Source of the DNA: Vermamoeba vermiformis
Taxonomy: Eukaryota
Length of the DNA stretch: 64,000 bases
Reading direction: 5' to 3'
Assembly (NCBI GenBank): GCA_045837725.1
Contig: JBEWZL010000260.1
Span: forward strand, 248,001-312,000
This document shows, piece after piece, positions 70-31,056 of this stretch (positions are counted from its first letter, which is position 1; every line of letters starts with the position of its first letter). Position numbers and translations under genes: made by a program. The notes beneath the pieces are model-generated. The model saw only the letters and a program-made list of their open reading frames with translations. It ran no database searches and was not told where the DNA came from.

Positions 70-3000
70 TTATTTTTTCGGCCGTGCCTTCGCTCTTTCT
101 AATTCTTCTTTTATAAAATTTATCACTCGGGCATATCGCTCGTCTTCAGGCGATGCAGGTTTACATACATTACTATAAAAATAAATATTAGAACTCATAA
201 GGAAGTTGGATGGATCTTCGTTTGTTTTCAGATCTTACCGATGGTTCTGGTCGAGCATAAAGAACTTATGATTTTCACCTAAGAATTTTGGATTGGCTGA
301 ATCTTCATCTACAATCTAAGTCAAGTGATTAGACCAAAACAATAGCCAGATCTTGAACTAGATCTTGTCGTACCTGGTAACACGTGACTGTATGAGTTAT
401 TGGCGCACCGAAGCATGTGATCGTCTCTCCGAAGCTATTATAACAAAGTATTAATATTATTAAGGGTTAAAATAACTACTAGGCGTAATAATTATTACCT
501 CAAAGTTGACACGTGAGGAGCTATCTTTGGGAATGCTTCATTGAGTTCCTTTAATCGATTATTTTCGGGACTTAATTCTACCATGGCGGCAGTGCCTCTG
601 TTAATGTGAAGTATATGTTAGACACTTATAAGTATGAGCAGATCAGCTTCGATAAGTACCTGAAGATGACGTCCAAGTAACCTTTGTCGTAGTACGTCAA
701 TTTGCTTCCCATATGCGGTGTAGAATAAAATACTACAGCGACGGTATTATCCAAAATATTTTTATATTGCTATATTAAATATGTATTAGTACTTGTGATT
801 AAGGTTCGAAACTGCAGATCGAGATCGAGATCTACTTACCGGTTCGTTATGTGCAAATAACAACAGTTGTTTAATAACGAGGCCTCCAAAAGAATGACAG
901 ACAAATACTACCGGTCTTTTGTTTCCGACAGCAGCGAGTTTTAATTTCTCTAAAACAGCGCGTGCTTGTTCAGGGATCGGCAGTGCCGTTCCCGTCCAAT
1001 GTGACAAAAAGATCTACATGTGTTGTTAGATAATATAATATGGCTTATTATCATTGCTATCAATCTTACATCGTAACCAACGGACAGAACACGAGAGTTA
1101 GGCAGATCTTTCGGCAACCAATCTCTCGGCCATGAAACATTGCTGTTCTCTTCTGAACCTCGCCAAGTACTCACAGGATGTCCAGTAATACCATGAATAA
1201 ATCTGCATTTATGAATAAACGGGTCAATATGGATCCGGTGCCTAAAAAGGTAAAATATTTGGATCGAGCTTACACAAAGTCAACTTCAGGCTCGAAGTTC
1301 TTTCGTTCTAACTGTGACGGATCAGGATATAGCAAGTAAATGCCTTCAGCATATTTAGGGCCTTTGAGCTGTACGTCTGCAAGTGTTGCTTGTGTTCGAA
1401 TCGCTTCAGATCTGACCGTCGGATCTTTCGACAATAAACCTTCTCTCAATATGACCTTTAACTCTGACTTGTCTTTTAATGCTTTAGGCTCTACATTGCA
1501 ACATCAATGTTAGTACTTTAACCTTAGTATTAGCCTATCTATAATCTTACCATTGACGGCAAGGTTAGCTATGGCACGCATCATGTACCGTTTTGTTTCA
1601 AGCGTTTGACTCTTGTTAAGCATTACAACTGAATAGAATGTCAATAAATTGTTAGTTTTGAATGCAAATGCTGCTTTACCTGTTTGCCAAAGTTCACTGT
1701 CTTGCGATACAACCCTTTTTGAAATTGCAGCTGTGCGGATAGGGATTAATATTTAAAAAATCCTTATTAATCATAATGAATGAATAAATCATACCGTTTC
1801 TAAATACATTTGAACAGATTCTTGCCACTTGAACTTCAAATTTGGGATCGGTAAAAGTAGAAAGAGTGTTTCTGCTGACAATATCATGATCAGCTACATC
1901 CTCATCTTCTTCAATTAACCGCAGTATATCATTGGCCCCTTTTTGTGCAGGTTGCGTTGCATTTTTCGGCTGCGTTCTGAATTGCTTGATCAGCTGAAAC
2001 AAACTGTCGTTGTTCTGCAGCTTGCTCGATATTTTTTCTAGGAAGAAAATGGTAACATTAAATCATATACTAGAATTCATAAATTGTTGACGGAGTAAAC
2101 TAAGGTTTGTAACGAAATTGATTGAGATCAAAGATCCGTTTTCCTAAAAAGGAAATCGGTTTTGGTTGAATAGTCTTACCACTTGTAGTTATATTTCCAA
2201 GAGCCACTAACGCGGATAATCTTAGCCTCGTATTGTTCTCAATATTGGTGCAGTAAAACAAGTAGTCGATCCATTCTCTTCGTCCAACCAGTGCTTTGAA
2301 CCCTTCACCGACTGAAATATTCGCCAATGCGCGCACAACTTGCTCGTTAATTTCATTGCTCTTAAATTGGCACAGTAATCTAATGTTAGATAAAATTTCA
2401 AGGGACTGTTCGCCAATTGCCGGATCCAAGTTATCATCGAGGGCTATATTTGCGATAGTCCTAGTTATCGCTATTTTGATGCCTATATTCGGCATAGAAT
2501 TCAATGCTCGCAGCAGATCCAACATTTGACCTTGCGCCAATTCAAACTGCGATAAAGTTTTGAGTCCTAATGAATGAATATTAGCGAATACTGTGCGTAT
2601 TTGATGAACGATATTACCTTTTTTAGAAGTACTCGCAATCGATCGTGCAATTGTCTTGGCAAATTCAGTGTCTTGCGTGGATAACAAGTGTCGCAAAGCA
2701 GGTATTTGAGCTTGTTGCAGAACTTCCTCGCTCAATCGATCTAAGTATATTTAGACTATAGTAACATATTATTATCATTTGCGAGGTCGTACCTCGTGAA
2801 GCTAATCGCGTTACTGTCTTTGCAATTTGTTGCAGGATCTGCTGATCGCTGACATTTAGAGCCACAACGCATAATTGGCGTATTACACCACTACTTAATA
2901 TCTCACTACTAATCTCCTCTAAATTTTAACAGAATTAGGCTCGGAGAATTAAATTTTCGGATTAATTTTTTCCGTACCGTGCGCTGCGAGATTTAACAGA

Positions 3001-4372: not shown

Positions 4373-7300
4373 ATGGAGCGGCCAGGTCTAACTGCGAACG
4401 TTCGAGACTCGATAGAAGATGAGATTGCAACCTCCCGTTCCGCAGATCTGTTTCAGATTTTTACAAAGCAACGGTTCATATTGAAGAAAGAACGAGAATA
4501 TTTGAAGGCTATACAGCGGGTTGTATCATCGAAGAAGACGCTCGCGAGAGTTGATACAATTACAGATTTCAATCCGCTAACAAATACCTACTTCACGAGC
4601 CAAGGACCGCCGCCACCGGTGGAAAAAACACCCCAAAAAAGGAAACTAAACAGAGCAGCATCTGTTGCCGTCGGTGATGTAGCCGCATTCAGAAAATTAG
4701 AAGAGAAGCAAAAAGATCGAAATCCAAAACCGCGCTTATCGAAGAGGCTCGAAAGAACTCAATCGGAACCGTTCATTCATTCGTGGGAATTTAACAACAT
4801 TGATATCACGAATGAACTCGTTCTTCCCAAGCATGTTTTCAACGGGACAATGCAAGTTTACCTAGCTCAGAGATGGCGCGAAAAACGACTTCGATTAAGC
4901 TTTAGCGCTGCCTCGTTGAAAGAACATATGGCACAGTTTGATATACACGAGAGACCTCAACAGGAAGACGAAGTTCCTTCGGATGTCAGGTAACGACGAT
5001 CGAACCAAAACCGAATTTATTCAGATTGGCGTAATAAATATTAATATAATATTTAGGGATTTATTAAAAGAAGACCAAAAGAATCGTCAAGTCAAAATTA
5101 TGTTCGAAATTAACAAAGAAGGAAAACAAGTTGTGGCCGCTGGAAGCGCATCCGATTTACTTTCCTCGCTTATCGATAAAGAATATATAGGTAAGTAAAT
5201 CTTTCATCGTATATGTGACTCGTATTTTTAAGATTAATTATCCCGCAGACGCAAACTTTATCGAATTGTTCTTGTTCTCGCACGACTACTGGATCTCAAG
5301 TGCCGAACTGATGAAGGCTTTGACGAATTAGTAAGTAAATTCTAGTTATAAGTGCTATATAAAGCTTATAGACTAACTTAGATTAGTTACCGCAAACCAA
5401 TTAAAGATTCTGCCGATCCGAAGGCAAAGCATAACGAAGTAATTGCATTTGTGATTAAAAAGCGGTAAGTGATTTTTTTACGCTAAAAATACAGCAAAAT
5501 TCCCTATTTCTTGTTTTATTGTAAGCTTGCTGTCTTTGTTTCGGATGCAGATCTGACTTTTTTGTACAGAATAGTTTTATTGCTGCAATTATGGCTAGAA
5601 GACCATATTTATGAGATTAAGGATCCTGATACTGTTCAACCGCTGAATCAGTTTATTAAAGAGCTCGAACAATCCAAAAATGAAGCCGAAAAGAAATGGA
5701 GCGAAATGTTAATGAAGAGTTGGACTCATTCCATGAAAAAGGTGCGTAGTATAAGCACATATTTTATCAATAATATTAATGAATTTCATTAGGCGCACGA
5801 GTTTTCGATTTACTGTCGTCCGACAGCGGATTTGGCCGAAGAAAAGAAAAAATTGTACAAGAAAAACCCAGCGAAGCTATCGTTCTTAGATATCAATCCT
5901 TCGGAGCTAGCAAAGCAGATGACATTATTTGACTATCATCTGATTGGTCGTATTGCTCCCAACGAATTTTTCAATTGCAACAGAAAAAGCGGTAGATCTC
6001 CGAACGTGGCGGCATTAACCGAACGAAATCACCGAGTACGTAATATAATTATATATAATACTATACTAATAATAATATATTATATTCAGGTTACAATGTG
6101 GGTCGCTACAGAAATTTTGTCAACTGCTAACGATAAACAACGTGCAGTTGTGATTGGAAATTTCATTCAATTAATGCTCGTAAGTTTAATACATGATATT
6201 TTATTATCGGATAATGGTGGCTAATGTCGATTAATGCAGAATTTGATGGAGTTGAGGAACTATCAAAGTTTCATTAACATTTATTTCGGCTTGAAACGAC
6301 CGCAAGTGACACGATTGAAAAAGACATGGAGCGTAAGAACAATATGAAATTATATCAATATATAACTCGGTCTTATATTAATATTTTGTTTTTAAGTTAC
6401 TGAGCAATAAGTTGAAGCAACGTTGGGAAGAATTCGATTCAGTGATCACGCTGCAAGGATTGATTGAGTTTTTCGATAGGACGTTGTCGGAGCCACTTCC
6501 GAAAGTTTTGCCGTCTCGTAAGAACATTTTTAAACTTGCGGAATAATAACTAATGACGCTAACCCGAAACAGAATTGTTTTTGCGCTACATTGCCATTCA
6601 AGAACAAGAGCCAGAATTCTACGAAAAAGACAACACGTTATTGAACTTCATTAAACTGCGAGGACTGGGTTTGATCGTGAAACACATCCGGCACAGTCAG
6701 GTCGGACTTTTTCCGATTGAAGAAGTGGATTATTTGCAGGCCTATTTAAGGAACCATATGCAGTATTTGGGAGAGGAGCCGTTAACGAAATTATCGCACG
6801 GTGTAAGGATTTAATTCAATTATGACTCTTCAATATCAGATACGCTAAATTTGGTAATTTTTTTCAGATTGAACGAAAGCAAGTTCGTCACCGAAAATCA
6901 GTGTTAGTTGTGCCCGAGAGCAACGGAGTTAATATTTTGGATCAATCATTGAACCAGCACGTGACGAATCTGATCAATACTGTCGTGTTGACACCACGTG
7001 ACACGCTCGTGCAACAAATTCACAACGAGATGTTGACCAAGTGGGACAGACCTTACACTAAGTGTTCCATTGCCGCGGACTTGCCGAGATTGGTCACAAA
7101 GGCAAGTACAATGCAAATTCATGACATATATGAATACGAATACTAATGTATTGGTTGAAATATAGATTCAAATAGTCGATGAACAAGGACAAATTATGAT
7201 CATTAGAAATTTCTTTCAGGGCAAATCACTCAAAAAGAACGCTACGAGACCACAGCCACAGTCCGTCAAAGAATATATCAACATTGTTTTATCGATCTGC

Positions 7301-8369
7301 GCATAGTACGTACTTTTGGAAAAGTCATTTCCTTATTTGGAAAAGTCACGTGTCATACTAATTTATCAATAATGCAGTAAGATGAATTTGGTCAAAGAAG
7401 CAGCAGCGATTAAAGTTCGTTTCGAGGAATATTTTAACCCTCCTAAATGGCAAGCGAGTGCGGCACCCAAACAATTGAGTAGCAGTGCTGAAGTCAAAAA
7501 GACTGTGCCGACATTAGGCACGAGCCCTGGTCGATCAGGACTGATGATTCCACGCTCAGGCAGCAGTCCGGAGCTTGAATCACCGCGGCTGTCGAGTTCA
7601 CCAATTACTTCTACGGACACTTATTCTCCGCCGCCAGTGTCACCGCGCAAACGAATTTCAATTGGCCGCGCACCGCAGTCAGTGAACAGCCCTTCGATTG
7701 AAGTTACTGGCCATTCTCCGCGCAGTACTTCGTTAGTGAGTCTCAACAAAGATCCAGAAGAACAAGATCTGAACAAGGTACGAATATTTAAATTCTTATA
7801 TTTATTATTCTTCGCAGCAATTATTTATTTTTACTTGTACTCGCTATTTATTTATGAATAGATGATTTTAAATGTAACTTTAATTTAATATTTATTTTTA
7901 GACTTTGGATCGGTTCATCAAGGAAGTACTCGGCGAAGAAAATCCCTTAGTAAGGCTGCTTAAATCAGCTGCTTCACAAGGAGTCTTATCGCCAGCATGG
8001 GTGAGGCTGAAATTGTTCTTATTGGTCGATTTTCCGTTCAAAGACGTGAAAGACAAGGGCTGGATTATCGTCATTGAATTTAGCGCCAATGAAATTCGCG
8101 TAATTCACAAAAAGAAAGAGCGAAGTGCGGATGAGACTGAAGAAGGCACGCCTGACTTTGAATTCTGTTGGGAACTCACGCTAGTGTTTCCTTTGACTAT
8201 GGATCGGTTAATCCGTACGCAGTTCGTCATATCGAGCTATAATGTTGCGGATTCGATGCCTAAAGCGCAACAAGCGGATTTCAAAACTATTATGGATCAG
8301 TACAAAGGACAAGGTTATAAGCGTAATAAGAAGAAAAAGAAGGTCAAGCACGTTAGTATGAACATGTAA
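4373..8369 (+). CDS. Ras guanine nucleotide exchange factor (REM + CDC25 domain) with a Dictyostelium GflB-like C-terminal domain
   Basis: REM-like VVAAGSASDLLSSLID; CDC25 motifs LDINPSELAKQMTLFD, WVATEIL, NYQSFINIYFGLKRPQVTRLKKTW and LLNFIKLR; Ser/Pro-rich linker; C-terminal FPFKDV..W.I.I...IRVIHKKKE...FEFCWELTL domain. Confidence 0.85.
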
Positions 8370-8518
8370 ATAGAAAATAAGTATCGTAAGTACCAGCAAA
8401 ATGAATCGTTATTTCCTTTTATGGAAAATGATGTTCGAATGAATTTTCTAACGTTACATTTTCATTGCATAGGTTGTAAAATAAATAGGAAAAGTTTATC
8501 ATAAAGAAGGTAACTATA

Positions 8519-10672
8519 TTATAACTGTACATTTGTTGTATCGTCGCCAGCAGCAGTTGTCGGTTTGTCCGAAGAATTCGTTGGTGAACGAGAAGTCGTC
8601 ACTTGTTGCGGCATATCAAACAAGAATATTCTCGCGAACGAGTCGAATAACATGGCTGACGCTAAGAAGAAGCAAGTGATTAAATAAGCTTTTGGTTCTT
8701 TGTCTTCGATCGCGAAAGCAATTGCTGTTATAATGAGGCAAAAGCGTGCAACGGCGTTGAGAATCATCTTTGAATTAACCTAATGAAAAAGCAACACGTA
8801 AGTACATAAATTTTATTGCTAGATTCGGTTCACATTTAAATTTAATTTTCAATCGCAATTTCGATTTTGATTAAATTTCTGTCCGAAGATCTTTCTTATG
8901 GATAATAAACTAATTTTAATAATGCTTATAGAAAGGTATTATATTCAAGGGGTACTTACTCGACTTAATCGTTTTACTCGTTTGAGTTTTTGCGCTGCTT
9001 TCATTCTTGAGGCGATCCGAGCAGCGGTAACAATGTAAAATATCAAAAATCCCGTTGATATGACTAAGTATATAACCGTAATAGGTGTAGTAGCTCCAAA
9101 GTCCAAATAATAGCCAGTTATAATTACAATGATGTCTGCGGCTATTAACGTCAGCGTAATGACGAAAAACGGAATTTTCAACCGCGATAAGAACGGATGA
9201 ATTTTAATCGACGAGTCCGTAATGATTTCATGCCTATTTAAAGTAAGTATTATTATTAGTATTACAATCTAACTACGAAATTAATAACTAATAATAGCAA
9301 AAACGAATTTTACTAAAAAAGGAAAAATTTTGGTTGGAGTTCTATACTACGTACCAATAGAAGGTTACTAATACGAAAGTAGCAGTACCAAAGGGCAATG
9401 CAGCAGCATTGACCCAAAGACTGAACGCGGTTGGAAGTTGTTGAAAACAGCCAAGCGGATCTATCAACAACGAGAAGATTCTCCCTATGAAATTATAGTA
9501 AGCATTAGTATACTAAACAAACCCTTATTATTGGTTAATAATAATTAAATGACGGCGTTTAGAAACGGAATTTCGGCATGTCGCGATCTGGACGCATCCG
9601 TGTCTTACAAATATTAGCAATGAACTCCAATGCAAGACAGACTTGCGGCACGTTAAAGTGCGAGCCTTGAGCTTTGATGTACATGATCAGCTTGTACAGA
9701 CTGTAGCCGAGTAAGCCGAGAATTGTCGCCCCAAAAACGACTCGTGACACGATAATTGCTGCCAAGTGGTAAATAATCACGCTCCATCTATTGCCTGCAA
9801 ATAAAAGATACGTTAATTAATATACCTATTCAATCGTACTTAAACTTTGAAATCACAAATAATCAGATCCGGATTCCATTTCGCCTCGTGACCGCGCGGC
9901 AATTTTTATACGTGATTTTGTTTGAAAAGCGATCATATTGTACTTTGTATTATAGTGCATTACCTTCGGAAGTAAGAGTGATAAAAATATCAGATCCGCT
10001 GTTGACTTCATCGATGACCGGTGTAAACGCTTTGATGTTCACGGATGCGACTTCAATTTGAATGTCTGAAGCGTCTTGACCACTATAAATACAAAACTCG
10101 CGACCAGGTATTTCTAATAATGCCTATAATTAGCTGTTGTAGCTGTGAAATTTATGTCCGGTCCCGTCGACCGAAATGTGACACGTATCATTTAAAGATT
10201 TCGAATTAAATCGAATTAAATCAGTGAATTTTGAAATTAAAATCCAATCATTAATTAATAATATTAACGTACCATCATTAGTTACATGAATGACGGCTAT
10301 AGCGCCGAGATCTCGAAGTGCGATAATTTTAAACCAAAAATCTCGCTTCGGCAAGTCGATTATGAACGCAATATTGCCAGCTATATCTACCGCGGTATCA
10401 TTCACTAATTTTCCTGATATTGGTGCAAACAGGGAGTTCCAATTATCGCCTACGAAATCCAGATCAAAGTTAGAAATCCCGTAGATTTTCTTATTAGTGT
10501 CAGAATATGGTTATTAAATCTTATTCTTACCTTTTCTATATATTTGCGCTGATTCGATTGCAGTTCCGTTTAGCGGACCGGATTCGATCAGGACAAAAGC
10601 TCTCGAGGAACAGACGACCACCAATAAAAGTACGAGGACCAAGTAGATAGACCTACTCGTCATTAAGGTCAT
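8519..10672 (-). CDS. Signal peptide + PA (protease-associated)-like domain + 7TM protein, paralog 1
   Basis: Hydrophobic leader MTLMTSRSIYLVLVLLLVVVC; PA-like GNIAFIIDLPKRDFWFKIIALRDLGAIAVI; seven hydrophobic helices; clear similarity and shared intron positions with three copies at 22-31 kb. Confidence 0.75.
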
Positions 10673-10798
10673 TATATTTTAACTTTAAGTTGTATGTGTT
10701 GTCGTTTCAAGAGCGAAGATGAAAATAACGAAATCTGTTCAATTCAGCAAAGTAATCGCGAAGCGTAAAAATACACGTTTAATACCTGTGAAGAAGTA

Positions 10799-13772
10799 CT
10801 AGAAATTCTCACACTCGCAATTTGGTTCGTCCTTAGTGATTATTCTCCGTGATTTTTCATCTTCTGGAGTAAGTATTGTGCTCGCAAAGCACTTCTTGGT
10901 GAGCAAAAGCTGTGTTAAGGCCATTTTTGTTTTGGTTTTAGGCGCAGCTGGTTTAGTTGGCTTCATGCTTTGCAGTGCAGCCAATGGACTTTGTTTGTTA
11001 AATAGTTCAGGCGTCAGCAACATGATTGGTTGCTGAGGATGAGCCAAATTATGTGCAGTAACTGCCTTACATACTGACTTGCTGAACTGCCATCCTGATA
11101 AAATCTTACTTGATTGAGTTTTCTGCTCATGGCTTATAATTAACTTACTCGTATCCAGTAATGAGGCTGGTTGATTTCATTTGCAGCACTTCTGCATCTG
11201 CTCAAGAGTTCTGTGGTGCCTGAAAAGAAGTTGTTTGGGTCAAGGGACTCCAAAGCTACTTTTGCAGTCTTTGGGTCCACAACTGCCTCGCTGAAATTGG
11301 TTTGAATGCAAACAATGGCTGTGATTGAAGTTGTGCTTTTAAGGCCTGTAAGGAAGGTCTGCTCATCTTTCAGGACCCTTTTTGAGACAATAGTAAATCC
11401 TTGTTGGAATGAGGTTGTTGGTCTAAGAATAAATAATTAGTTACAATGCCTGCAGTAAGACATAACGTACTGTTGCAGCTTGTTGAAGTATTCCCTAAAG
11501 GAAAGCAGGCGACAATCACTGATCATGAATTTCTGGAGAACTTCATTATTTAAGACACTTTTGTCACCACCCAAAGCTAATTCATTAAGTGATTTTCCCT
11601 TGTGTTGCTTTAAAAGAGCAAATGCAAGCAATTCTCCAAATTGACCAGCTGCAAAGCGTTTGTTTTGGGAAGGTGCAAAGTAGAGTAACAGCTAAATCAA
11701 AGATAAGTACACCAGATAATACATATTTGTTGGTATTTACCTCCTCAAAGTCGATCATACTCTCCAGCCTGCTACTAATAAATTCATCTGTGAGTGGAAC
11801 TAAAATGTTCTGCTGTGGATCATTTTCTAGGTTTCTCATTAATCCTTCAGCTCCTACTGGCAGAGGTATCAAGCCAGTCTCAAGTAGTAGCTGCAAATCC
11901 TGGTGAGTTGCTGCAATTGTTGTGTGACCAACTGCAATTCTAGCCAAGAATTCATTTTGCCACTGCTGAGGTTAGCAATGGAGCTTGATCAAGTGTTTGC
12001 ACTTACCTCTATATTGCCAGCATCCATCATTCGTTCAACATATTCATTTGCCAGGGCTTGCACTTGGAGCTTTTGTTTATCAATGGCTTTGTCCATCACA
12101 GACTCCAGGGCCAGATTTCTGTTTTGACAAAGTTCCACTGAAAGCTGGACCAGAATTACTAACAGAAAGAACAAAGTAACCACTTACAGTTTGCCAAAAT
12201 CCCCATAAGTATGCTGGACGTACAGCAAAGGGCCTGAGTTCTTCAACTTTTTGCACAAACTCAGGAGTAGGTGCAAAGGTGCTTGTTAATTCAGAGGTAA
12301 ATCTTTTCCATCGTTCATTAGGCTCTTCTGTCCAGTAAAATTTGACTATTTTAAGGCGTCCACGAGGTGGTACACCCCTTTTAGGCAGGTCAAGTTGCCT
12401 TGTGGCAAAATGAGTTGCCAGTACAACTTGCTGAAAAAATGTTAGAACAAGAAAATCACCCATTCACTAACTTACTGGTAGGCTAGCTGCTTTTACAAAT
12501 TCTTCCATGGCAACTCTCATCAAGTACAAGAGTGAGGTGTTTTGATGGTAAGATTGACTGTCTGTCAAGTGCGAAGTATTTGCAGATGGATTTTTGGTGC
12601 CTAGTTTCCTTTCCAGTGCAAGTTGTTTATATGAAGCCTACATATAAGATTAGACCAAAGCAGCTGATAATAAAGTGTACCATTGTTTCCCAAGGGTGGT
12701 GCAGAAATTGTCCTTCCTCAGTGTAAAACTGTAAAACTTCATCATAAAGAACTGCTTTCAATCCAATTTCTTTTGCATAGCTGTTCATCAGATTGCTAAA
12801 TGCTAAGAATGCCGTTGTATCATGCGCATACAGTGCCAAGTTGTCTTTGTACATTTCAAGAATATATAGTTTTGGGCCAGCAGCAAGAATTGTACGTAAA
12901 AATGCTTCATTAAGGTTTTCTTCCTTAAAGTGAGACGCTTGTAAAAGGAAGAGTAAGGTTCATGAGAAGTATTTTCGTATGTCCTACCATATTTGTCAAA
13001 GAACAGTTTCGCAAATTGAATGAATGTCATTGGGATTAGTGCAGTTGCTTGGTAAGCTGTTCGTGAAAAAGTGATTTCGCTCGTTTGGTCGGCAACTTCG
13101 CCTCGTGGAATTTTCAGATCCTTGCGAAGGCAGTCTATAAAAGCCAACAATTGCGACAAGAACTGTTCGTGCTCTAAGAAGCGCAGCAAAATTGCACGGT
13201 TCTGCAAGCAGTACTGATAAGCTAGATGTGATTTGCCGTAGCCACTTGCTAAAAGCTCGTTAGCGTTTGGAGGATCCAACAATAACGTATTATTGTACCT
13301 TGTATTATTGTAACCAACTTTCGATTTTGCGCATCACCGATTGCGCTAGATGCAATGACATTTTGCAGTTCTCGCAGTACTTGCTGCATTTTCGGGGCGT
13401 CAGATCCAGGTTCATTAGATCTGAAATCGTTGAAGTAAAAGGACGCCCAAACCGAGCCTCCCCCTGTTTCTAAGGATTTTGGAGCTATTAATTTCGGCGA
13501 AAATAAAGCCTTTTGCACTTCTAAATTGCTGGATAAGTCAATTGCTTTTTTGATGGCCTGCAGATGCAAATCCAAATCCAGATTTAACTTCGGAATTTGA
13601 GACCTCTCGGTGCGGGCTTAAATATCAATACAATTAATACGGAATTAAATAATTTTCGCAGCTTACTTGTTTTTTTTCTCGTAGGCAGTACTGGGTACAG
13701 ATGCGCTCTTGAGGTAACACGAGACGAACGAGAGTACATCCGACTTGCAAGCCTTACAATTTGCTTGAACAT
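10799..13772 (-). CDS. Crinkler-like P-loop NTPase + restriction-endonuclease-fold protein, about 10 exons
   Basis: Splicing across short introns restores Walker A LVTIIQGASGYGKS, Walker B AVLYDE and an RP motif (FAVRPAYLW). The C-terminal part reads AAGQFGELLAFALL ... IVCIQTNF ... ALESLDPNNFF ... WIRILSGW, reminiscent of CR-REase domains. The 5' exon and start are less certain. Confidence 0.6.
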
Positions 13773-14770
13773 TTGCTTGGGGATCTTTAAATGTGGTGTT
13801 CTATTGCAGTGCGACGATCTGTACAGACGTAAAAATAAATTAGCCCTTGCAGCAAGAGGTGTATCGAATTGGCGGCGAAACGATAAATTATATATCAATT
13901 CAATTCGAATATAAGTAATACTTTCTCCGGACGAGGATACAGTGACGACCACCTTTTTGCCAGATGAGTTGGATCAAACTTGCGATTAGTCTGCTGTGAA
14001 TAAACAAATTAATACATGATTATTGCAAAAAATTAGATTAAATTGCGAGTACGATCATGTTCGTGGCAATTTGATTACCATCAATAAATCATAAATTGAA
14101 AAATTAATTAAAAAATAAAGAATAATTCTAATCGCTTTTTAAGATTTGGATCATAGCATTGTTGTTGCACTAGCTATTATTAAAATATTTTTCATACCAA
14201 GGCTGACTCTATTGCGCCACATCCGCGATCTTGTCTGTTCCGAAAGTGTCATTAGCAAGCATACTACCATAAGCCTCCGACGAATATAAAAGAATAAATA
14301 TATAAGAGATACGTTACATGTTTCCACGAGGTATGTTTGCTCGTTGGTTTAACAAAGGGCAACTACGAGCAAAAACGGGTTAATGCTTTGTTCAAGAGTT
14401 GTTTATTAAATCAGTTCTAAAATAATAATCTATTTAAATAAAGGCAATAATCGCTACGAGGGTCATTACACCTGGCACGAAGACAGCAGATCCTGAAACA
14501 GCTTGGGGGACAGTAGTTGAAGGAATCGAGCTAGGATTAGCAGTACTTGGTACTGAAGATGAAGGAGCAAGAGGGATATTAGACGAGTCATAGCGAGTGC
14601 CACGCACTTCTACACCAGTTGGAGCAGGCGTGATGTCTTTAATGACTGCATCGCCATAGTTGTTCAACAAGTCTCCCGTCACTTCAGCTTCAGTGGTGCT
14701 GTTCTTGAAGTCCTCGACCACAGCCCTGTGAAATGGGACGTTAGTTTGATTGCACAAAACGCAGCTGTCA

Positions 14771-14782
14771 TGACACGTGTCA
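14771..14782. repeat. Dispersed palindrome TGACACGTGTCA (intronic)
   Basis: Exact 12-mer, one of six copies. Confidence 0.9.
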
Positions 14783-15259
14783 AACAGAATGTAAAGAGTT
14801 ACGTACTTGACAGCGTCTGCAGACGATAGTTCCTGTGAAGTGCTAGTGCCGTCTACAAGAATATTGTGTTAGATTGTAACGTAAGTGGCAAGTGTAGTCA
14901 CGTGGTGTCTTACTGGCAGGAGCCACAGTGACAGTAACGTCAAATCTGTTTTCATAAACTGTGCGCTTGGCTGGTATTGAGCCAGAGTTTTGGACGGAGA
15001 AGGTGCTCAATCGGTAAGTTGATAGGTTGTATCTGTGAATACTCCTGTTAGACCACACCAATAGTCGGTCAAGGAGTACGTACCTATTCGCAAAGTTTTC
15101 AGCCAATTGCACGCCATTGTCTCCAAGGTAATCAACCATCGCGAGAACAACAACGAATCCAGGAGCTAAAGGAAGCGATATTAGAACCATATGAAAGTCG
15201 ATTGAACCAACATACCTTCAGGGCACAACAACGGTGCAACGTTTGTCAGATCCACAGTC

Positions 15260-15756
15260 AAGTTGTACGAACCAAGAAGCCAACTGACTTGAGTCTCGCT
15301 ACTCGGCAAGGTAACGATGAAAGGTGACACGGGGTACGTTAAAGTTGAGCCAATTGAGAATGTTGTTGGTCTGGCACCCTGATAAAGCATTCAGAACTTG
15401 ATCACTCACGCTTAGCTCAATGTGTGAAACTTACTCCGTATTCGATAGGACTGAATGCGTTTGTTTCACCTTGACTAATCGTGTGTGCAACACGATCTTC
15501 GTTGATGAAACTGAAGTGGAGTGTGTTGCCTTCTTGCACTGGTTCAACGCAATCGAGGACAGGGATCACATTCGGCAAGCCACACACGCCGTTGTAGCCG
15601 ACCAATCCATTTGTACAGAGGCAATCTAAGTCACAGTTGGCACTACCATCACATTCCTCGTTGAGCTCGAGCAAGCCATTGCCGCAGAATGTGATAATTT
15701 GTCGCTTAATATGGTTGGTCTCGGGGTCTTTGGCGACCACGAGAATGTCGGAGCCA
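15260..15756. repeat. Direct duplication, copy A (partner 16628-17122)
   Basis: Near-identical DNA including an intron, from aagttgtacgaaccaagaagcc to aatgtcggagcca. Confidence 0.9.
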
Positions 15757-16627
15757 GTCAATGGAAGGAAACGGTAGTACGATAGAAATTGAGTAGTAGA
15801 TAGTTATATTAATTATCGGATTAATCCGTATTGGAATAATTTTCTCTAAGTCAAACTATTTCGACAAATTTAATAAAAACATATAATAATTAACTCATCA
15901 AAGATGAAAAATAATTTTATTTTTTGATTAGGCCAAAACATCCTAAGAAGCGAAATCCTATCATTCTCCTTTGGCAAGTAGTCCTGTTCTGAAGCCTCCA
16001 AACTCCTCCAAATTAGTCTGAGAGACGGCCAAACGCGCCCTCAACATAGGAACGCGCCCATGAGCACCATATCTATCTAAAAAAAATAAAAGCTACACCT
16101 CAAAGCTACAAAACCGCAATACTAATAATGATACTACGACACCACACGATTTTTTACCTGCTACTCTTGACATCTGAGGGGACCGCCACGACCAAGTCTG
16201 CGACGAGTGGACCCCGGACACAGAAGGCAACTAAAATAATAAAATATACGATCGTACAAACGACACTCGGAGAGAAACGGGGGGCACTCAACGTCAAACT
16301 CCCTACCGCTACTGAGCAGGGGGAAAATTGACCATCCAGCCGCCGAAATGAAGAGAATATCTGCCGTCGGAGAACGGTGAAAACTAGACCTTCATTCCGT
16401 CGCTAACTGCAATCATGGCCGGGGAGGGAAACAAGACCTGCGGGATTACAGCGCCACTAGAGGACGCATATAGTATCGTAGGCACACGGAATAGCGACAT
16501 CACGACACGCCCGCCTTTCGCCCTAGTACCTCTCGACTCAGCTCGTCAAAGTCTTCGTCACCATCTTCGTATAGGGACTTGTGATGCCCCAAAGAAAGAA
16601 TAAACAAAGGCGAGCCAGGCACGAGAG

Positions 16628-17122
16628 AAGTTGTACGAACCAAGAAGCCAACTGACTTGTGTCTCGCTATTCGGCAAGGTAACGATGAACGGTGACACTG
16701 GGTACGTCAAAGTTGAGCCAATTGAGAATGTTGTTGGTCTGGCACCCTGATAAAGTATTCAGAACTTGGTCACTCGCACTGATCAATGTGTGAAACTTAC
16801 TCCGTATTCGATAGGACTGAATGCGTTTGTTTCACCTTGATTGATCGTGTGCACAACACGGTCTTCGTTGATGAAACTGAAGTGGAGTGTGTTGCCTCCT
16901 TGCACTGGTTCAACACAATCGAGAACAGGGATCACATTCGGCAAGCCACACACGCCGTTGTAGCCAAACAATCCATTCGAACAGAGGCAATCTGTGTCAC
17001 AGTTGGCTCCTCCTTCGCACTCCTCATTAAGTTCGAGCTGTCCGTTGCCACAGAATGTTAAAACTTGTCGCATAACATTGCCGGTAAAAGGGTCTTTTGC
17101 AACTGCGGCAATGTCGGAGCCA
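16628..17122. repeat. Direct duplication, copy B (partner 15260-15756)
   Basis: Same sequence as copy A with scattered substitutions; similarity stops abruptly at 16628. Confidence 0.9.
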
Positions 17123-22436: not shown

Positions 22437-24310
22437 ATGCCCCGAACCTCAATACTATGTTATTTGTTAAGTGCACTGTTCATATCAGTGGTTCGTGCCG
22501 AAGTTCAGGTTCTCTCAGGCAGTCAGAATGGCACTGCCATAAAAAGCGCAGAGTTTTATAAAAAAGGTATTGGATAATACATATCAATGTGTATTAATAA
22601 TGTTCAGCCTCATAGTTTCCAATTAAGTATGTGGATCTAACGGATCTTAATTTTTTATGAAAGGTGACGACTTTACACAAGTATTTGAACCAATTTCAGG
22701 CTTATTGGTTGATTCAACGTCTATAGAAGTCGGTAACAGAATTGTTTATCTTGCGGATGTGCCAAAAAGTCAGCTTTGGACGAGAATCTTCCAGCTTAAA
22801 TCAAGAGGCGCGATTGGCATTATTTTCGCTTCTATCTATCGTAAGTAATGTTTATACCATGATGTTATTAAATGAACACATTTGGAGTCAAAGTTTCGGG
22901 CGCAATTTTTTCAAAGCGCGGATTCAGGCGACAATCGGCACGAAAGAGCCGACGATCCGCGTGACAGGACTGTCAAATCGAATCACCGTATTAATGATAA
23001 TTACTATAGCGGTACCTGGGCAAGACTTTTGCACATGGACAGGTGAAGATGTGTCGCAGATTAACTTTCCAATTGCAACGGTGTATCAAGAAGACGTAAA
23101 ACAGCTTTACGCGGAATTGCTCACAGGACAAGAAATCCTTATTAACCTCACATCCGAGGGTGCGTAACAGCTTTTAAACATCAGCCGTATAAAATCATCG
23201 GACGGCGAAACTAACAATTTCTAAATTAGGAAACCCGTGGGCCGATGCTATCGAATCAGTAGCAGTTATTGTCGTATATCGAGTAATTCTCGGAGGTTTC
23301 GCCTTATCTCTTGCGATTTTTGGTTCATATAAGCTGGCTGTATTTATCAAGCATCAAGGCTCCAAGTTCAACATTCCGCAACTCGTCTTAGGACTCGAAA
23401 TCATTGCTAACCTCTGTAAGTAAATTTCATCATAATAGCCTGCAATGAGACTTACCACTGTTAATATGAAGGGCGAGTGATGTATTTGGTAGTAGATCCA
23501 TTAGGCTGTAGCTTCGTGTACGGATCTGCAGTGAACAGTTTTACAGACACAGTGAGTATTCCGTACCCTACTTCCACCTTCGTGTTGATATCGTTCTATT
23601 GGTACGTCTCCTCATATTGATTTTGCAGCAAGACAAAGTCGTAACGTGCCACTATTTGACATCTTTTGACAGGTACGAAATAGTCACTGACGCTTCGATA
23701 ACAATTTATCCGTTCTTGAATCGACTGCAAATTCCGTTCTTCGTGATCACGTTCTTACTGATCGCTATGGATATGACTCTTAGCTTGCTTGGATTTTACT
23801 TGGAGTTCTCGACTACGACACCAACATCCATCATCTACCTTGTCATTAGCGTCGCAGTATTGGCCTTTTACATAGTAACGTTAGTCAAAGTCATGGGTAG
23901 AATGCGATTATCAAAAGAAGTGCGAGGAGAATCCAAGAAATTCCGCCGATTAACGAATGTCAGTAGATCTACAACACTACCAACCCTTTCGTATTAATAT
24001 TAACCTATTCAGTATATAACAGGTCAATACGAAGATGATTCTTAATGCTGTTGGAAGACTGTGCGTTATTATCGTTGCCATTGCTTACGTCTTTCCTTCC
24101 GTGAACCGACAGCCAGTTCCTTTCGTGATTGGCTGGGCATTCTTATACTTGACGCTGAACGTAGATTCATTAATGAGATTAATATTGTTTGAGGTTCCTA
24201 AAGGTTCTTCAGGATCCTCGAGCAAAAGTAAGCCAACCGGATCTTTGACAGAAACGAAGGTGACGCGGAACTCTAGCCCTTCACTTGTTCAAAGCACTAT
24301 AGAAATGTAA
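22437..24310 (+). CDS. Signal peptide + PA-like domain + 7TM protein, paralog 2
   Basis: MPRTSILCYLLSALFISVVRA leader; NRIVYLADVPKSQLWTRIFQLKSRGAIGII; PGQDFCTWTGED; seven TM helices with FNIPQ..L.LE, DPLGC and FYWYEIVTD. Confidence 0.8.
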
Positions 24311-26955: not shown

Positions 26956-28763
26956 ATGAATATTTGCCTGTATACTGTTTTACTTACATCCGCATTGACT
27001 CTTGGATCCGCTCGGGTATTCATCCTCTCAGGATCGAATAATGGCACTGACTTCGAAACAGCTGAGTTCTATAAGAAAGGTACCTTAAATATTCCAAGTT
27101 AGCTATTTTCTCTAACATAACCTGGATCAGGCGACAATTATTCTCGATATTTTGAGCCAATATCAGGAATATTAGTCGATGCCTCCTCGCCCGACATTGT
27201 CAATAAGATTGCTTACCTTAGCAACGTGCCGAAGAGTCAGCTTTGGACGAAGATCTTCGAACTCAAGGCTCGAGGTGTTGTTGGCGTACTCTATGGTGCC
27301 AATTATGGTAATATAACTGCAGTAACTAGTTAATAATAGCGTTTTGTTAATATTCAATATTTGTCAATTTAAAGAACACGCATCCATCGGACAATCTCCG
27401 AAAAATCCTATTGATTGCTCCCATCTCTCATCATATTTTAAATTCAGCCGTTCTTGGTCAAGACTTTTGTAATTGGAACGGAGAAGATATGTCGCAGATC
27501 TTGTTTCCAATAGCGGAGGTTAACTCTGCGAAGTTCGCGCCTGTTATCGCTGAACTTCAAGAAGGCGGTCAGGTCGAAATATATTTAACATCTGAAGGTA
27601 ATAATTGCAATTTTTGATCGATTTAATTTCAACATGTTTTACTTTTGCGGATGGATCAAATTTTGTGTACCTGGTATGGAGGTTACATGTGTACTGATCT
27701 ATTTTTAGGCAATCAATGGGCGTCGATATCACCGATCGCCATTATAGTAGTCTTTAGAGTATTTTTAGGAGGATACTCACTCGCCTTAGTAATTTTTGGG
27801 CTTTGCAAACTCGGAGTTTTTATCAAGCACCAAGGATCTCATTTCAACATCCCTCAAGTCTGCTTAGCTCTTGAAGTTATCGGAAATATGTGTAAGCATA
27901 TGTTATCTATCTATTAGTATTTCTAACGAATGAAAAATAGGGCGAGTAATATATTTAGTGGTAGATCCGCTCGGGTGCAGCTTTGTTTATGGTGCCGCAG
28001 CGAATAGTTTCTTAGACTCAGTTAGTATTCCTTATACTACGGCTACTTTTGTCATTCTATCGTTCTACTGGTACGCGAAGGCAATTTTTAAACGAAATTT
28101 CATAACTTACCGTTTTCGGATGTAGGTACGAAGTTGTCACAGATGCCTCGATAGTTATTTATCCCTTCTTATCCAAACTACGAATTCCTTTTTTCGTTGT
28201 TATGTTGTTACTCATCGCTATGGATATGACGCTCAGCTTGGCTGGATTTTTCTTCGAGTTCTCGACAACGACGCCAATGTCAGTTATCTATTTGATAGTT
28301 AGTGTTGGCTTCTTAATATTCTATATTATAACGCTCGTTCGCGTAATGAAACGAATGAAGATGTCAAAAGAAGTCCGAGGAACTGGCAAGAATATTCATC
28401 GTTTGACTCGCGTACGTTACAATTTCAAAAACTTACTTTAAAATACTAACCCTATATGTTTAGATTAACACGAAGATGATTTTAAATGCCATTAGTCGCT
28501 TTTGTTTCATTGTCGTAGGCATTGCATATATTTTTCCTGCTGTCAATCGTTATCCAACGTCATACACAATTATTTGGGCATTCTTATACTTTACCTTGAC
28601 TACCGACTCATTAATGCGAATATTATTGTTTGAATTACCTTCTGCGCAATCATCGAGCAAGAGATCTGGCACAGATTCAACGCGACTTTCTACAACGAAG
28701 GGCTCTGGCTCTGCTCTGGCTGAAAGCAATCCTAAAACCGATGACGTTAGTCCTGCAGTGTAA
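26956..28763 (+). CDS. Signal peptide + PA-like domain + 7TM protein, paralog 3
   Basis: MNICLYTVLLTSALTLGSA leader; NKIAYLSNVPKSQLWTKIFELKARGVVGVL; LGQDFCNWNGED; same 7TM motifs and intron positions as the other copies. Confidence 0.8.
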
Positions 28764-29098: not shown

Positions 29099-31056
29099 AT
29101 GACAACGAACTTGAGAACAATCTTTGGCATTACACTTCTCGTATGTGCTTTAGGGATCTGTCAGGCCCGTGTCTTCATCTTCTCTGGTGCTTCCAACGGC
29201 ACTGATTTCGAGAGCGCTCAGTTTTATAGGAAAGGTAATGACTCATGAAAGGTTTCTAACGTTGAACGGTGGACTAACTTTGGGTATAATTTTTTGTAGG
29301 CGAAGACTATTCCAAGGGGTTTGAGCCTCTTGATGGCGTGCTAGTGTATTATAAGAACGAGAATATTACGGGCAAAATAGCTTATTTTACAACGGTTCCG
29401 CCTTCGATCTTTTATCCAACTATCTTTGAGCTGCGAGATCGAGGAGTAATTGGTGTTGTATATGGAGCTGACTGGCGTAAGTACTATTTATTACATGCAA
29501 TGCTCGAGCATTTCAATTCGATTAATAACGTAATTAAGCGGAATAACCTGAGCGACATTGCCAGATCTCGCTCGGATATTTAAATGAGCGAACAAATTTA
29601 ATTTCTGAATTATTATAGGGGTACCTGGCCAAGACTTTTGTTATTGGACTCGCGAAGATGTGTCTCAAATAACGTTCCCAGTAACCGAAGTTAACCGAGA
29701 ATCCCAATTTGATTTAATCCATCAAGAGCTACTCGAAGGGGCTGAAATAGAAATCCGTATGACTTCGGAAGGTAGGTTTATAAGATCTTTCAATAATTAG
29801 AAATTTTGTGAACAAGATCTTGTTTCAATTTTCCAGATCAGGAAGTCTCGAACTACGAAGCTTGCAAGTACTTAATGACGAATTAATAATATTATAGGTA
29901 ACCCATGGACGATAATTTCTGGTTCTGTAACCGTTACCGTTGTCTTCCGTGTGCTTCTTGGCGGATACGCTCTTGCCATGATAATTTTTGGCCTGTACAA
30001 ACTCATTCTATTTATCAACCACCAAGGCCCTCATTTCAACATTCCACAAGTTTGTCTCGGCCTCGAAATCATCGCCAACATGTGTACGTAATCTCTCTCA
30101 TTAATTTATCGATGTGTGCTTACGGCGTTTTTGCCACTTTAGGGCGAGTGATCTACTTGGTGGTAGATCCGCTTGGTTGCCAATTCGTGTATGGGTCGGC
30201 GGCTAACAGCTTCTTAGACTCAGTGAGCATCCCATACACAACAGCTACCTTTGTGATATTGACGTTCTACTGGTAAGTTCCGGGACACGTGTCAATCCTG
30301 CGTTGTGCACGGGTTGGATCCCGCTGACTCAAGGGACCAATTTGTTTCATTGTTACGATACTAATAAGGTGTCGTTAATTTAGGCACGAAATTGTCTCCG
30401 ATGCCTCTATCGCGATCTACCCGTTCTTATCCAAATTGAAGATCCCGTTCTTTGTGATCATGTTGTTACTTATTGCAATGGATATGACACTCAGTTTGGT
30501 TGGCTACTTCTACGACTTCGATACAACGACGTCAATGTCTATCATCTACATCGTTATCAGCTTTGGATTCGTGCTCTTTTACACTATTTCTCTCGTCAAA
30601 GTCATGAAGCGGATGCGTGTCTCAACGGACCTGCGTGGAAGACAAAAGCGCAAACTCAAGTTCTTATCGAAGGTAATACTCAATTTGAAGATTTAAACGG
30701 CTGAATAAGCCTTAAAGATTGCAGAAAAAGATTTGTACTTACGAATCTTGCTCGATCAGGTCAATGCCAAAATGATCTTCAACGGAGTCGCGCAGTTTGG
30801 TGTAGTAGTCGTTGGTATTGCCTACGCATTTCCTTCCGTCAATAGCTATCCAGTTAGCTACATCGTCATTTGGGCTTTCTTGTACTTCATCCTGATCACG
30901 GATTCGTTAGCGCGGATTATCTTGTTCGATATTTCCTCGCGTTCTGCCTCGAGCAAGAAGTCAAGAAGCGATAGTAAACTATCTGAGACTGGTACTGGAA
31001 AATTAACAGAGATTACCAACACTGCTGAGCTCGAGCAAAGTCAAGCAGTCGTTTAA
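29099..31056 (+). CDS. Signal peptide + PA-like domain + 7TM protein, paralog 4
   Basis: MTTNLRTIFGITLLVCALGICQA leader; ITGKIAYFTTVP...IFELRDRGVIGVVY; PGQDFCYWTRED; same 7TM motifs. Confidence 0.8.

Follow-up and report, generated by a model that had tools for sequence, protein, structure and literature searches.

Gene-body methylation in plants and animals marks many constitutive genes. The ratio of observed to expected CpG (CpG o/e) is an accepted proxy for it (PMC5915941; PMC12344493), and reading this ratio as a record of inherited methylation is described as standard practice (PMC5915941; PMC13297926). In the protists discussed in PMC12344493, 5-methylcytosine (5mC) is sparse: it is found on 2.4% of genes in Acanthamoeba castellanii, also in Cyanophora and Naegleria, and on giant-virus inserts in Amoebidium. 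According to the same source, the methylated genes of the protists studied are few and mostly silent, with the promoter methylated too, and in Cyanophora the methylation of expressed genes builds up toward the gene end. PMC13297926 describes 5mC in early-diverging fungi as near-undetectable, and reports that fungi have largely lost gene-body methylation. The fungal process MIP prefers CG and is coextensive with a repeat, and the cytosines that it marks may later deaminate spontaneously (PMC4165359).

The locus described here is a CpG-poor domain of ~1.9 kb inside a protein-coding gene, and is best explained as a mutational footprint of gene-body CG methylation rather than as a device in its own right. 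It was found in a window of 64 kb (the whole stretch of DNA that was analysed), which contains 2968 CG in 64000 nt and has an overall CpG o/e of 1.19. A two-rate change-point fit on positions 8000-16000 placed the domain at 10890-12812, with support (two log-likelihood units) for a low edge at 10831-11044 and a high edge at 12770-12924. The number of CG per C was 14/377 in the domain and 298/1115 in the flanks (2*deltaLL = 116). For 11013-12812, CpG o/e was 0.164, corresponding to 12 CG observed vs 89 expected (Poisson P ~1e-24). Background windows of 1800 nt each (575 in total), taken outside 10500-13500 within the same 64-kb window, gave a CpG o/e of 1.223 (sd 0.133, minimum 0.91), which places 11013-12812 at z = -8. 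The CpG deficit is genuine and far outside chance, as compared with this 64-kb window only.

An earlier note, made from the letters alone, had counted about a dozen CG in 11041-12780 and had found TG and CA abundant there. The interval contains exactly 12 CG, with a CpG o/e of 0.17 against the 1.19 of the window, and with TpG at 1.36, CpA at 1.38 and GpC at 1.31. The sliding-window comparison that the note had proposed gave the same picture within this 64-kb window, the domain (0.16) lying below the minimum of 0.91 of the 575 windows. Its placing of the CG recovery after ~13,050 was roughly right, but the low edge lies ~150 nt to the left of its start at 11041. Base composition is ordinary (40.2% G+C in 11041-12780 vs 39.5% in the whole 64-kb window), and so is GpC o/e (1.34 in the domain vs 1.21 elsewhere in the window). 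Of the ten longest runs without CG in the window, nine fall here, among them runs of 280, 241, 209, 187, 177, 147, 139 and 138 nt. Both edges are sharp (~100-200 nt), lie within exons and disregard exon borders. At the upper one, CG per 200 nt climbs through 3, 5, 8 and 12 across 12700-13200. CG density returns to normal in the upstream transition zone (12813-13050), which covers parts of exon 3, intron 2 and exon 2 and has CG at 12813, 12825, 12895, 12936, 12976 and 13010, and then ~1 per 15-20 nt. The only other 500-nt window in the 64 kb with an o/e below 0.6 is 1451-1950 (0.58); this dip (0.58-0.60) is mild and not comparable to 10890-12812.

The host gene (10799-13772, minus strand) has 11 exons, with 836 codons plus a stop codon at 10799-10801. 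Its exons, assigned from spliced contigs and the reading frame, are 13667-13772 (inferred, and preceding exon 1 in our numbering), 13299-13616, 12988-13248 (exon 2), 12681-12937 (exon 3), 12476-12637, 12188-12430, 12007-12144, 11741-11965, 11471-11691, 11149-11422 and 10799-11104. The spliced frame is open throughout all 836 codons. The ten introns are 41-50 nt long and have the same size and GT..AG/CTAAY style on either side of the upper edge. Seven lie wholly in the domain (12638-12680, 12431-12475, 12145-12187, 11966-12006, 11692-11740, 11423-11470 and 11105-11148; 41-49 nt). Eight of the introns are absent from spliced contigs of the relatives' runs X5 and X11. Each of these joints has GT..AG ends on the minus strand, two of them after re-cutting by 1-2 nt. 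Intron 11692-11740, the first intron (13617-13666) and the ATG (13770-13772) were inferred from frame and splice motifs only. Two parts of the gene are CpG-normal: a 5' part of ~0.85-1.0 kb, counted from the start codon, and ~0.1 kb at the 3' end, up to the stop.

The product, an orphan of 836 residues, is tentatively predicted to be ATPase-like and to resemble P-loop NTPases of the ASCE class, in the AAA_22/KAP/ORC-like neighbourhood. A P-loop (Walker A-like, SGYGKSH; assigned by eye) is encoded at 13226-13246 on the minus strand, in CpG-normal exon 2, and a Walker B-like VLYDE at 12738-12752 on the same strand, in exon 3 and within the CpG-poor domain, where it aligns with VVYDEAH of the homologous protein P0001. 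Both are conserved with P0001, P0002 and P0005, the P-loop being invariant as S-G-x-G-K-x-H in this alignment. Pfam-A searches with all exon and ORF pieces of the gene (E up to 1-5) returned no significant family, and the matches of P0001 itself were sub-threshold (SLFN-g3 helicase, 0.014; AAA_34, 0.019; AAA_22, 0.16). A PDB sequence search with P0001 gave only noise, and its AlphaFold model, from a 5-row alignment, had a mean pLDDT of 41.8, too low for use. Leads from the ESM Atlas with P0001 scored 0.75-0.86, the best (0.86) being unnamed Basidiomycota clusters.

The earlier note had called this gene Crinkler-like. Some Crinkler (CRN) C-termini are NTPases, and a P-loop NTPase-type C-terminal module is possibly a shared feature. 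However, a six-frame regex search of the window for the N-terminal LxLFLAK-type header motif matched at two places only, 44447 and 34584, both outside 10.7-14.4 kb, while the HVLVxxP motif at the end of the DWL domain had no match in the 64-kb window. With no Crinkler Pfam match either, and an N-terminus that is rich in Arg and Ser (by eye) rather than a signal or header domain, a Crinkler identity is not supported.

The lost CG can be accounted for by the dinucleotides gained. In 11013-12812, 77 CG are missing and there is a corresponding excess of 40.2 TG and 36.4 CA, bearing out the conversion of CG to TG and CA that the note had suggested. All eight NCG and CGN trinucleotides are depleted (ratios 0-0.29), with CCG and CGG absent, and the most enriched trinucleotides are CTG (2.3x), TGC (2.0x) and CAG (1.7x). 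TpA o/e is not raised (0.64 in the domain vs 0.82 elsewhere). The seven introns wholly in the domain contain 1 CG in 313 nt vs 10.3 expected (P = 4e-4). Among four-fold Ser/Pro/Thr/Ala codons of the domain, NCG makes up 7/146 vs 112/415 in six other ORFs (Fisher, 7e-10), and NCA makes up 71/146. CpG o/e is 1.04 and 1.06 in exons 1 and 2, and 0.45, 0.16, 0.35, 0.16, 0.10, 0.24, 0.16 and 0.45 in exons 3-10, in this order. The depletion is due to mutation and not to codon choice, since introns are stripped, exons 1-2 are spared and NCG codons are lost.

The CG that survive are concentrated in arginine codons. Exons retain 11 CG in 11013-12812, and 8 of these occupy positions 1-2 of Arg CGN codons; the corresponding figure for exons 1-2 is 8 of 28 CG (Fisher P = 0.027). 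These eight lie within 11150..12364 (gene on the minus strand; plus-strand C at 11150, 11510, 11657, 12032, 12219, 12312, 12357 and 12363), and at each of them both transitions would alter the amino acid or create a stop. In a count of all tetramers over 104 windows, the domain ranked in the top two for deviation. After removal of words containing CG, TG or CA it was no outlier, 10 of the 104 windows being further from the window mean. Taken together, the composition, the balance of loss and gain and the codon results fit a methylation-driven decay of CG.

A search of 1.84 billion proteins found P0001 with exon 2 (43% identity, E 1e-6), and pairwise alignment extended the match to exon 3 (37% identity, E 3e-12). 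P0001 is thus colinear with CpG-normal exon 2 and CpG-poor exon 3, spanning the upper edge. The family is an orphan one, with two related clusters only among the 1.84 billion representatives. The 176-aa ORF at 12803-13333 found no homologous protein, and exon 9 had none near. No relative of the gene was found in viral contigs (IMG/VR), phages or 185,579 prokaryote genomes. A metagenome locus retrieved with exon 5 (L001) was rejected as spurious: it is a bacterial-looking contig of 57% G+C with aldolase, TPR and MBL-fold ORFs, and shares one short word with the query.

Closer relatives came from sequencing runs X5, X7 and X11, which are tentatively taken to be RNA. Contigs of independent runs cross both edges of the domain, and removal of the intron at 12938-12987 joins CpG-poor exon 3 to CpG-normal exon 2 in the relatives' contigs. 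Among the 23 of 54 pieces listed, differences within the domain numbered 41/957 (X5), 38/728 (X7) and 34/650 (X11), and outside it 17/423, 49/1001 and 23/440, respectively. Relatives with a normal CG density would be expected to show ~4.5% extra T>C/A>G differences in the domain; this excess was not seen in the pieces listed, which suggests that relatives diverged by 3-8% share the depletion. Among the 40 of 147 differences listed, four affect pairs of adjacent positions, and three of these pairs are TG<->CA doublets (10966/7, 11184/5 and 11520/1), which would be the pattern expected from ancestral CG that decayed separately in two lineages; three CG that remain here (11012, 11289/90 and 11510) are TG or CA in relatives. 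From X12, a run of raw RNA reads that carries the same species label, 5 partial reads with <95% likeness matched the 4.6 kb compared, in which the neighbouring genes were included and were equally blank.

No comparable depletion was present in the other ~62 kb of the window, which holds about twenty genes, judged from Pfam matches and ORFs, and no second copy of the domain or of the gene was found elsewhere in the 64 kb. Two tandem copies (15260-15716 and 16628-17082) are ~90% alike and retain many shared CG (o/e 0.84-1.09), so duplication alone does not erase CG here. Rfam and tRNA scans of the whole window gave 0 matches each. Two further observations on other genes of the window bear on the affinities of the organism. 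A TrkH ORF has unnamed matches at 98, 79, 77 and 50%, with the best named ones at 34-36% (Absidia, Closterium), and is fungal-like in the Atlas; a pairing of RasGEF with GlfB_C hints at a Dictyostelium GflB-like protein.

We consider it probable (roughly 0.6) that the domain records long-standing CG methylation confined to the gene body, followed by deamination of 5mC under purifying selection. CG in the ~1.9-kb domain would have been methylated for a long time in cells that transmit the genome, starting before the split of the sampled relatives and probably continuing today or recently ended. Methylated C deaminates to T with poor repair, so each CG that was free to change would have become TG, or CA via the other strand, and because the gene was needed, selection would have retained CG in arginine codons. 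Both ends of the coding region, ~0.85-1.0 kb on the start side and ~0.1 kb on the stop side, would never have been targeted. Such a profile would point to methylation of the body of a transcribed gene, and not to silencing that includes the promoter. We infer 5mC as the cause, a CG-specific maintenance methyltransferase in the organism, and a reason for which this gene is targeted.

Like the gene-body footprints of plants and of invertebrates (the mosaic methylation of the honeybee or Ciona type), the locus combines a CG-only loss with a reciprocal gain of TG and CA, and the depletion extends over exons as well as introns while the 5' and 3' ends of the gene are spared. The gene seems to have stayed functional and, to judge from the relatives' spliced contigs, may be expressed. 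The domain lies within the coding region 10799-13772, and its confinement is of the gene-body type as far as the footprint, rather than methylation itself, can indicate. In those systems, however, methylated genes form a large, mostly conserved housekeeping class of low CpG o/e in a bimodal distribution, whereas here a single orphan of ~twenty genes is affected and the rest stay at ~1.2; instead of a broad class of constitutive conserved genes, one orphan gene in 64 kb carries the footprint. Since the other ~62 kb show no depletion, methylation would have to be very selective. The host also looks like a microbial eukaryote with fungus-style introns of 41-50 nt, and not like an animal or plant. 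Were it an early-diverging fungus, as the fungus-like neighbours of the TrkH ORF might suggest, the scarcity of 5mC described for that group would also count against the reading. A mostly unmethylated genome with a small minority of strongly CG-methylated genes would resemble the sparse 5mC of protists, but there the genes are mostly silent, promoter-methylated and often derived from viruses or transposons. The gene described here is intron-rich, has no viral relative and a CpG-normal 5' end (~0.9 kb spared), and its relatives make spliced RNA, the runs being presumed RNA.

Some of the same features could come from a defence triggered by duplication, either MIP-like methylation or a CG-preferring RIP-like mutation, with a second copy of the ~1.9-kb segment now or formerly elsewhere; we regard this as unlikely. 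MIP (Ascobolus, Tuber-like) shares with the locus the CG preference, the sharp borders and a mark coextensive with a defined segment, and a mark laid over the shared length of a repeat would explain edges inside exons. Moreover, X5 pieces with 0 differences (0/161, 0/115) occur beside pieces at 5-6%, which two copies or strains could explain. MIP needs a repeat, however. None was found in the 64-kb window, no read or contig matched two places of the stretch, and the window's other repeats, including the ~450-nt tandem copies at 15.2-17.1 kb, retain CG. The intact frame and the enrichment of CG in Arg codons favour slow decay under selection over a burst. RIP likewise limits C-to-T transitions to one segment, but it hits mainly CpA, raises TpA and wrecks frames, whereas here CpA is raised, only CG is lost, the frame is intact and TpA, at 0.64 vs 0.82, is not raised, which excludes classical RIP of the CpA type. 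A CG-specific process that does not involve methylation seems less probable still. It could be selection against CG in this transcript or DNA segment, for instance to escape a nuclease or binding protein that reads CG, or deaminase activity that is local and linked to transcription. It would suit a window whose remainder bears no sign of CG methylation in the organism, but introns are stripped like the exons and exons 1-2 of the same transcript are spared, a pattern at odds with selection acting on mRNA or codons. The symmetric gain of TG and CA (+40, +36) is the two-strand signature of deamination in CG context, and the signatures of non-methyl deaminases are not known to be CG-specific.

The earlier note had favoured a silenced selfish or foreign element, or acquisition from a CpG-poor donor, and neither proposal is supported. 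It is very unlikely that methylated heterochromatin here covers a transposon, a viral insert or a dead effector gene. The signature of CpG decay, the orphan family and the lack of reads in RNA run X12, which extends to the neighbouring genes, would be compatible with it. Against this stand the open 836-codon frame, ten short canonical spliceosomal introns and spliced transcripts in two other runs (presumed RNA), a single copy in the window, and Pfam and viral searches that gave no match to a transposase, integrase, capsid or any other mobile element; the 0.9 kb next to the promoter is also CpG-normal and the CG of Arg codons were kept by selection. An origin of the CpG-poor part in a CpG-depleted donor (eukaryote or virus), or in gene conversion from a methylated paralogue, with fusion to native 5' exons, is largely refuted. 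It would account for the composition step within one gene and for the rank of the domain when all tetramers are counted, and methylated protist genes are often viral in origin (PMC12344493). Yet P0001 (37-43%) is colinear across exon 2 and exon 3 and a relative's spliced contig joins both sides, introns are alike in size and style on either side, and the low edge also lies inside an exon. Residual tetramers are within the range of the window, no relative turned up in IMG/VR viral contigs, phages or the 185,579 prokaryote genomes, and a donor that simply differed in composition is not expected to yield a CG deficit equal to the TG plus CA excess. Chance, or a chimeric assembly from two organisms, is refuted for practical purposes by the Poisson P of ~1e-24 (z = -8), by contigs of independent runs that cross both edges and the joint of exon 3 and exon 2, and by the homologue P0001 spanning the edge, even though the sample may hold more than one eukaryote, as relatives occur under other organism labels and in water metagenomes.

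A bolder form of the gene-body reading is offered tentatively, and we think it on the whole doubtful. The eukaryote looks fungal or amoebozoan in gene content and introns, and gene-body methylation is regarded as absent or lost in those groups. With CpG decay otherwise absent, it may still keep a locus-specific CG methylation, compatible with transcription, on the body of a single orphan NTPase gene of the conflict type, older than the split of the relatives. This would be a targeted heritable mark on one host gene, perhaps a means of switching a costly defence-like gene on and off, and not a defence against repeats or viruses.

A CpG-poor island is not necessarily a transposon or viral insert. 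Such islands may serve as cheap markers for methylated loci in unannotated protist and fungal assemblies, and the domain described here lends itself well to testing 5mC calls from nanopore reads. If the reading as a footprint of gene-body methylation holds, sequence alone would reveal that the organism has, or recently had, a CG-specific methylation system aimed at very few loci, and a body-methylated gene could stay functional under a ~ten-fold raised CG mutation rate, with arginine codons as the last places to keep CG.

The interval 11041-12780 contains 12 CG dinucleotides, in agreement with the dozen or so that the earlier note had counted by hand, and has a CpG observed/expected ratio (o/e) of 0.17, compared with 1.19 for the 64-kb window, which alone sets the background level. 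The corresponding values for TpG, CpA and GpC are 1.36, 1.38 and 1.31, and the G+C content is 40.2%, compared with 39.5% for the window. The segment 11013-12812 (CpG o/e 0.164; 12 CG observed vs 89 expected, Poisson P ~1e-24) lies at z = -8 relative to the 1800-nt windows sampled outside 10500-13500 (n = 575; mean 1.223, sd 0.133, minimum 0.91). A two-rate change-point fit placed the CpG-poor domain at 10890-12812 (support intervals 10831-11044 and 12770-12924), where CG accounts for 14 of 377 C, compared with 298 of 1115 C in the surroundings. Nine of the ten longest CG-free gaps in the window fall within this stretch. Elsewhere, CpG o/e drops below 0.6 in just one 500-nt window (1451-1950; 0.58-0.60, TpG 1.38), a mild, much weaker dip adjoining an Arm/HEAT-repeat ORF. 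Tandem paralogous segments at 15260-15716 and 16628-17082, ~1366 nt apart and 88-94% identical, belong to minus-strand gene(s) upstream of the host gene; they retain shared CG, and nowhere else outside the domain is CpG o/e as low as in their region (0.84-1.09; 1.8-kb minimum 0.91).

An ORF scan detected no long ORF in the domain stretch, because short introns split the coding sequence. Contigs from X5 and X11, public sequencing runs with other organism labels, match the locus at 90-99% and skip eight segments with minus-strand GT..AG ends (13249-13298, 12938-12987, 12638-12680, 12431-12475, 12145-12187, 11966-12006, 11423-11470 and 11105-11148; two joints were re-cut by 1-2 nt). Together with an intron at 11692-11740, inferred from frame and splice motifs, they define ten minus-strand exons from 13614 to 10799 in a single open frame of 800 codons. 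With a first exon (ATG 13770-13772) and a first intron (13617-13666) added, both of them inferred, the host gene has 836 codons plus stop. All ten introns are 41-50 nt long, many with a CTAAY box. The open frame and the spliced contigs therefore indicate that the host gene is intact, and is transcribed and spliced in relatives. The minus-strand genes on either side end near 14434 (upstream) and begin near 10700 (downstream). Upstream of the inferred ATG, 13861-14052 shows 2.6% divergence in a water-metagenome relative, with 1-nt indels, a pattern that would fit a conserved non-coding 5' region.

The depletion begins within exon 3, ~0.85-1.0 kb past the inferred ATG, and ends within the last exon, ~0.1 kb short of the stop. 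CpG o/e is 1.04 and 1.06 in exons 1 and 2, then 0.45, 0.16, 0.35, 0.16, 0.10, 0.24 and 0.16 in exons 3-9, and 0.45 in the last exon. The 77 missing CG are offset by 40.2 additional TG and 36.4 additional CA, bearing out the CG to TG/CA conversion proposed in the earlier note. No NCG or CGN word escapes depletion (ratios 0 to 0.29); CCG and CGG are missing altogether, and the most enriched trinucleotides are CTG, TGC and CAG. The seven introns wholly within the domain contain 1 CG in 313 nt (10.3 expected, P = 4e-4), and codon choice is therefore ruled out as the cause. Four-fold Ser/Pro/Thr/Ala codons in exons 3-10 are NCG in 7 of 146 cases, compared with 112 of 415 in six other window ORFs (P = 7e-10), and NCA in 71 of 146. 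Eight of the 12 surviving CG in 11013-12812 occupy positions 1-2 of Arg CGN codons, where either transition alters the residue or creates a stop; two straddle codons, one lies in TCG and one is intronic. In exons 1-2, Arg-type CG account for only 8 of 28 exonic CG (Fisher P = 0.027 vs the domain). Such a pattern is expected if CG transitions are more frequent than normal and purifying selection then filters them to keep the protein working.

Among the 23 of 54 aligned pieces listed, divergence inside and outside the domain is 41/957 and 17/423 for X5, 38/728 and 49/1001 for X7 (a water metagenome), and 34/650 and 23/440 for X11. Normal CG density in the relatives would add ~4.5% of T>C/A>G differences to the domain, an excess that the listed pieces do not show; the depletion thus appears to be common to them. 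Among the 40 of 147 differences listed, TG<->CA doublets account for three of four adjacent-pair differences (10966/7, 11184/5 and 11520/1), and three CG remaining in the window sequence (11012, 11289/90 and 11510) are TG or CA in relatives. As this list is partial, the differences are only suggestive of CG decay continuing after the lineages split.

A Pfam scan of the host gene returned no family. A phmmer search with exon 2 (12988-13248) against 1.84 billion representatives yielded four proteins at E <= 1e-3, of which two are true relatives, P0001 (43%, E 1e-6) and P0002 (40%); the remaining two are repeat-protein noise. P-loop Pfam matches of P0001 are all sub-threshold, its Atlas leads are Basidiomycota clusters plus AAA_22, KAP and ORC-like clusters, and its AlphaFold model is unusable (pLDDT 42). 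Because SGxGK[ST]H and hhYDE are conserved in the family, we call the host gene a putative orphan P-loop NTPase-like gene. Crinklers are characterized by the motif patterns LFLAK and HVLVxxP. A motif search found neither in the host gene, and there is no profile match; the label "Crinkler-like" is not supported.

The earlier note had also considered a CpG-poor donor. P0001 is colinear with both CpG-normal exon 2 and CpG-poor exon 3 (12681-12937; 37%, pairwise E 3e-12), the latter alignment taking in a Walker B-like VLYDE/VVYDEAH, and a relative's spliced contig connects the two exons; the junction is therefore old. With CG, TG and CA words removed, domain tetramers lie inside the window spread (10 of 104 windows deviate further). 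No relatives of the host gene were found in IMG/VR contigs, phage records or prokaryote genomes; the sole metagenome match, L001, is a spurious bacterial contig. Import of the segment is thus very unlikely, and an intact gene spliced in relatives likewise gives no support to a silenced selfish or foreign element.

The window also encodes RasGEF, RasGAP, F-box, bromodomain, EF-hand, ankyrin, 7tm_3 and TrkH proteins. Copies of 10000-14600, ranging from near-identical to 90% identical, are found in water-metagenome DNA and, in spliced form, among the contigs of runs that bear the labels of two other organisms. X12, a raw RNA-seq run with the source's species label, has essentially no reads on three neighbouring genes. 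The source of the contig may be not the labelled organism but an unlabelled microbial eukaryote associated with it. The window, elsewhere rich in introns, includes an uninterrupted 489-codon TrkH-type cation transporter ORF (59856-61325, minus strand), and another TrkH fragment lies immediately upstream of it (61423-61815, minus strand); database proteins match the ORF at 98, 79, 77 and 50% identity, the best with an organism name at only 34-36% (Absidia, Closterium). At 5793-6221 and 7902-8366 (plus strand), a RasGEF domain precedes a GlfB-like C-terminal domain; the protein may resemble Dictyostelium GflB, and would then hint weakly at the taxon. Three diverged copies (65-77% identity) of a plus-strand gene segment (23012-23604, 27450-28073 and 29621-30275) indicate a local gene family. 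There is also an inverted 40-nt match between 30140-30179 and 9448-9487, and an uninterrupted 479-codon plus-strand ORF (54337-55776) with a 7tm_3 (class C GPCR) domain and a Chlamydia-PMP-type repeat.

Low CpG o/e is commonly read, as summarized in PMC5915941 and PMC13297926, as heritable CG methylation followed by 5mC deamination. The most economical cause here would be the same: heritable methylation over the domain, deamination turning its CG into TG/CA, and purifying selection filtering the losses. A repeat-triggered, MIP-like process, as outlined in PMC4165359, would explain sharp edges that disregard exons, but no second copy is seen in the window or in the relatives' aligned contigs, other window repeats retain CG, and the intact frame favours slow decay. 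Classical RIP is excluded because TpA is low. Five independent sequence tests favour methylation decay as the probable cause, which is the part of the earlier interpretation that finds support. On this reading the 5' ~0.9 kb and 3' end of the gene would be unmarked, the body would be marked in exons and introns alike, and the gene, judging by the spliced contigs of relatives, would be expressed. This differs from the sparse repressive methylation of Acanthamoeba, Cyanophora and Naegleria, where, in the outline given by PMC12344493, marked genes are mostly silent, carry the mark over the promoter and are often viral. Nor does it match true gene-body methylation, since 64 kb contain just this one affected gene, an orphan. 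The footprint is thus of a known kind in a new instance, and its setting is unusual, in that it lies in one host gene, an apparently expressed orphan, while the genome, as judged from the window, is otherwise not CpG-depleted.
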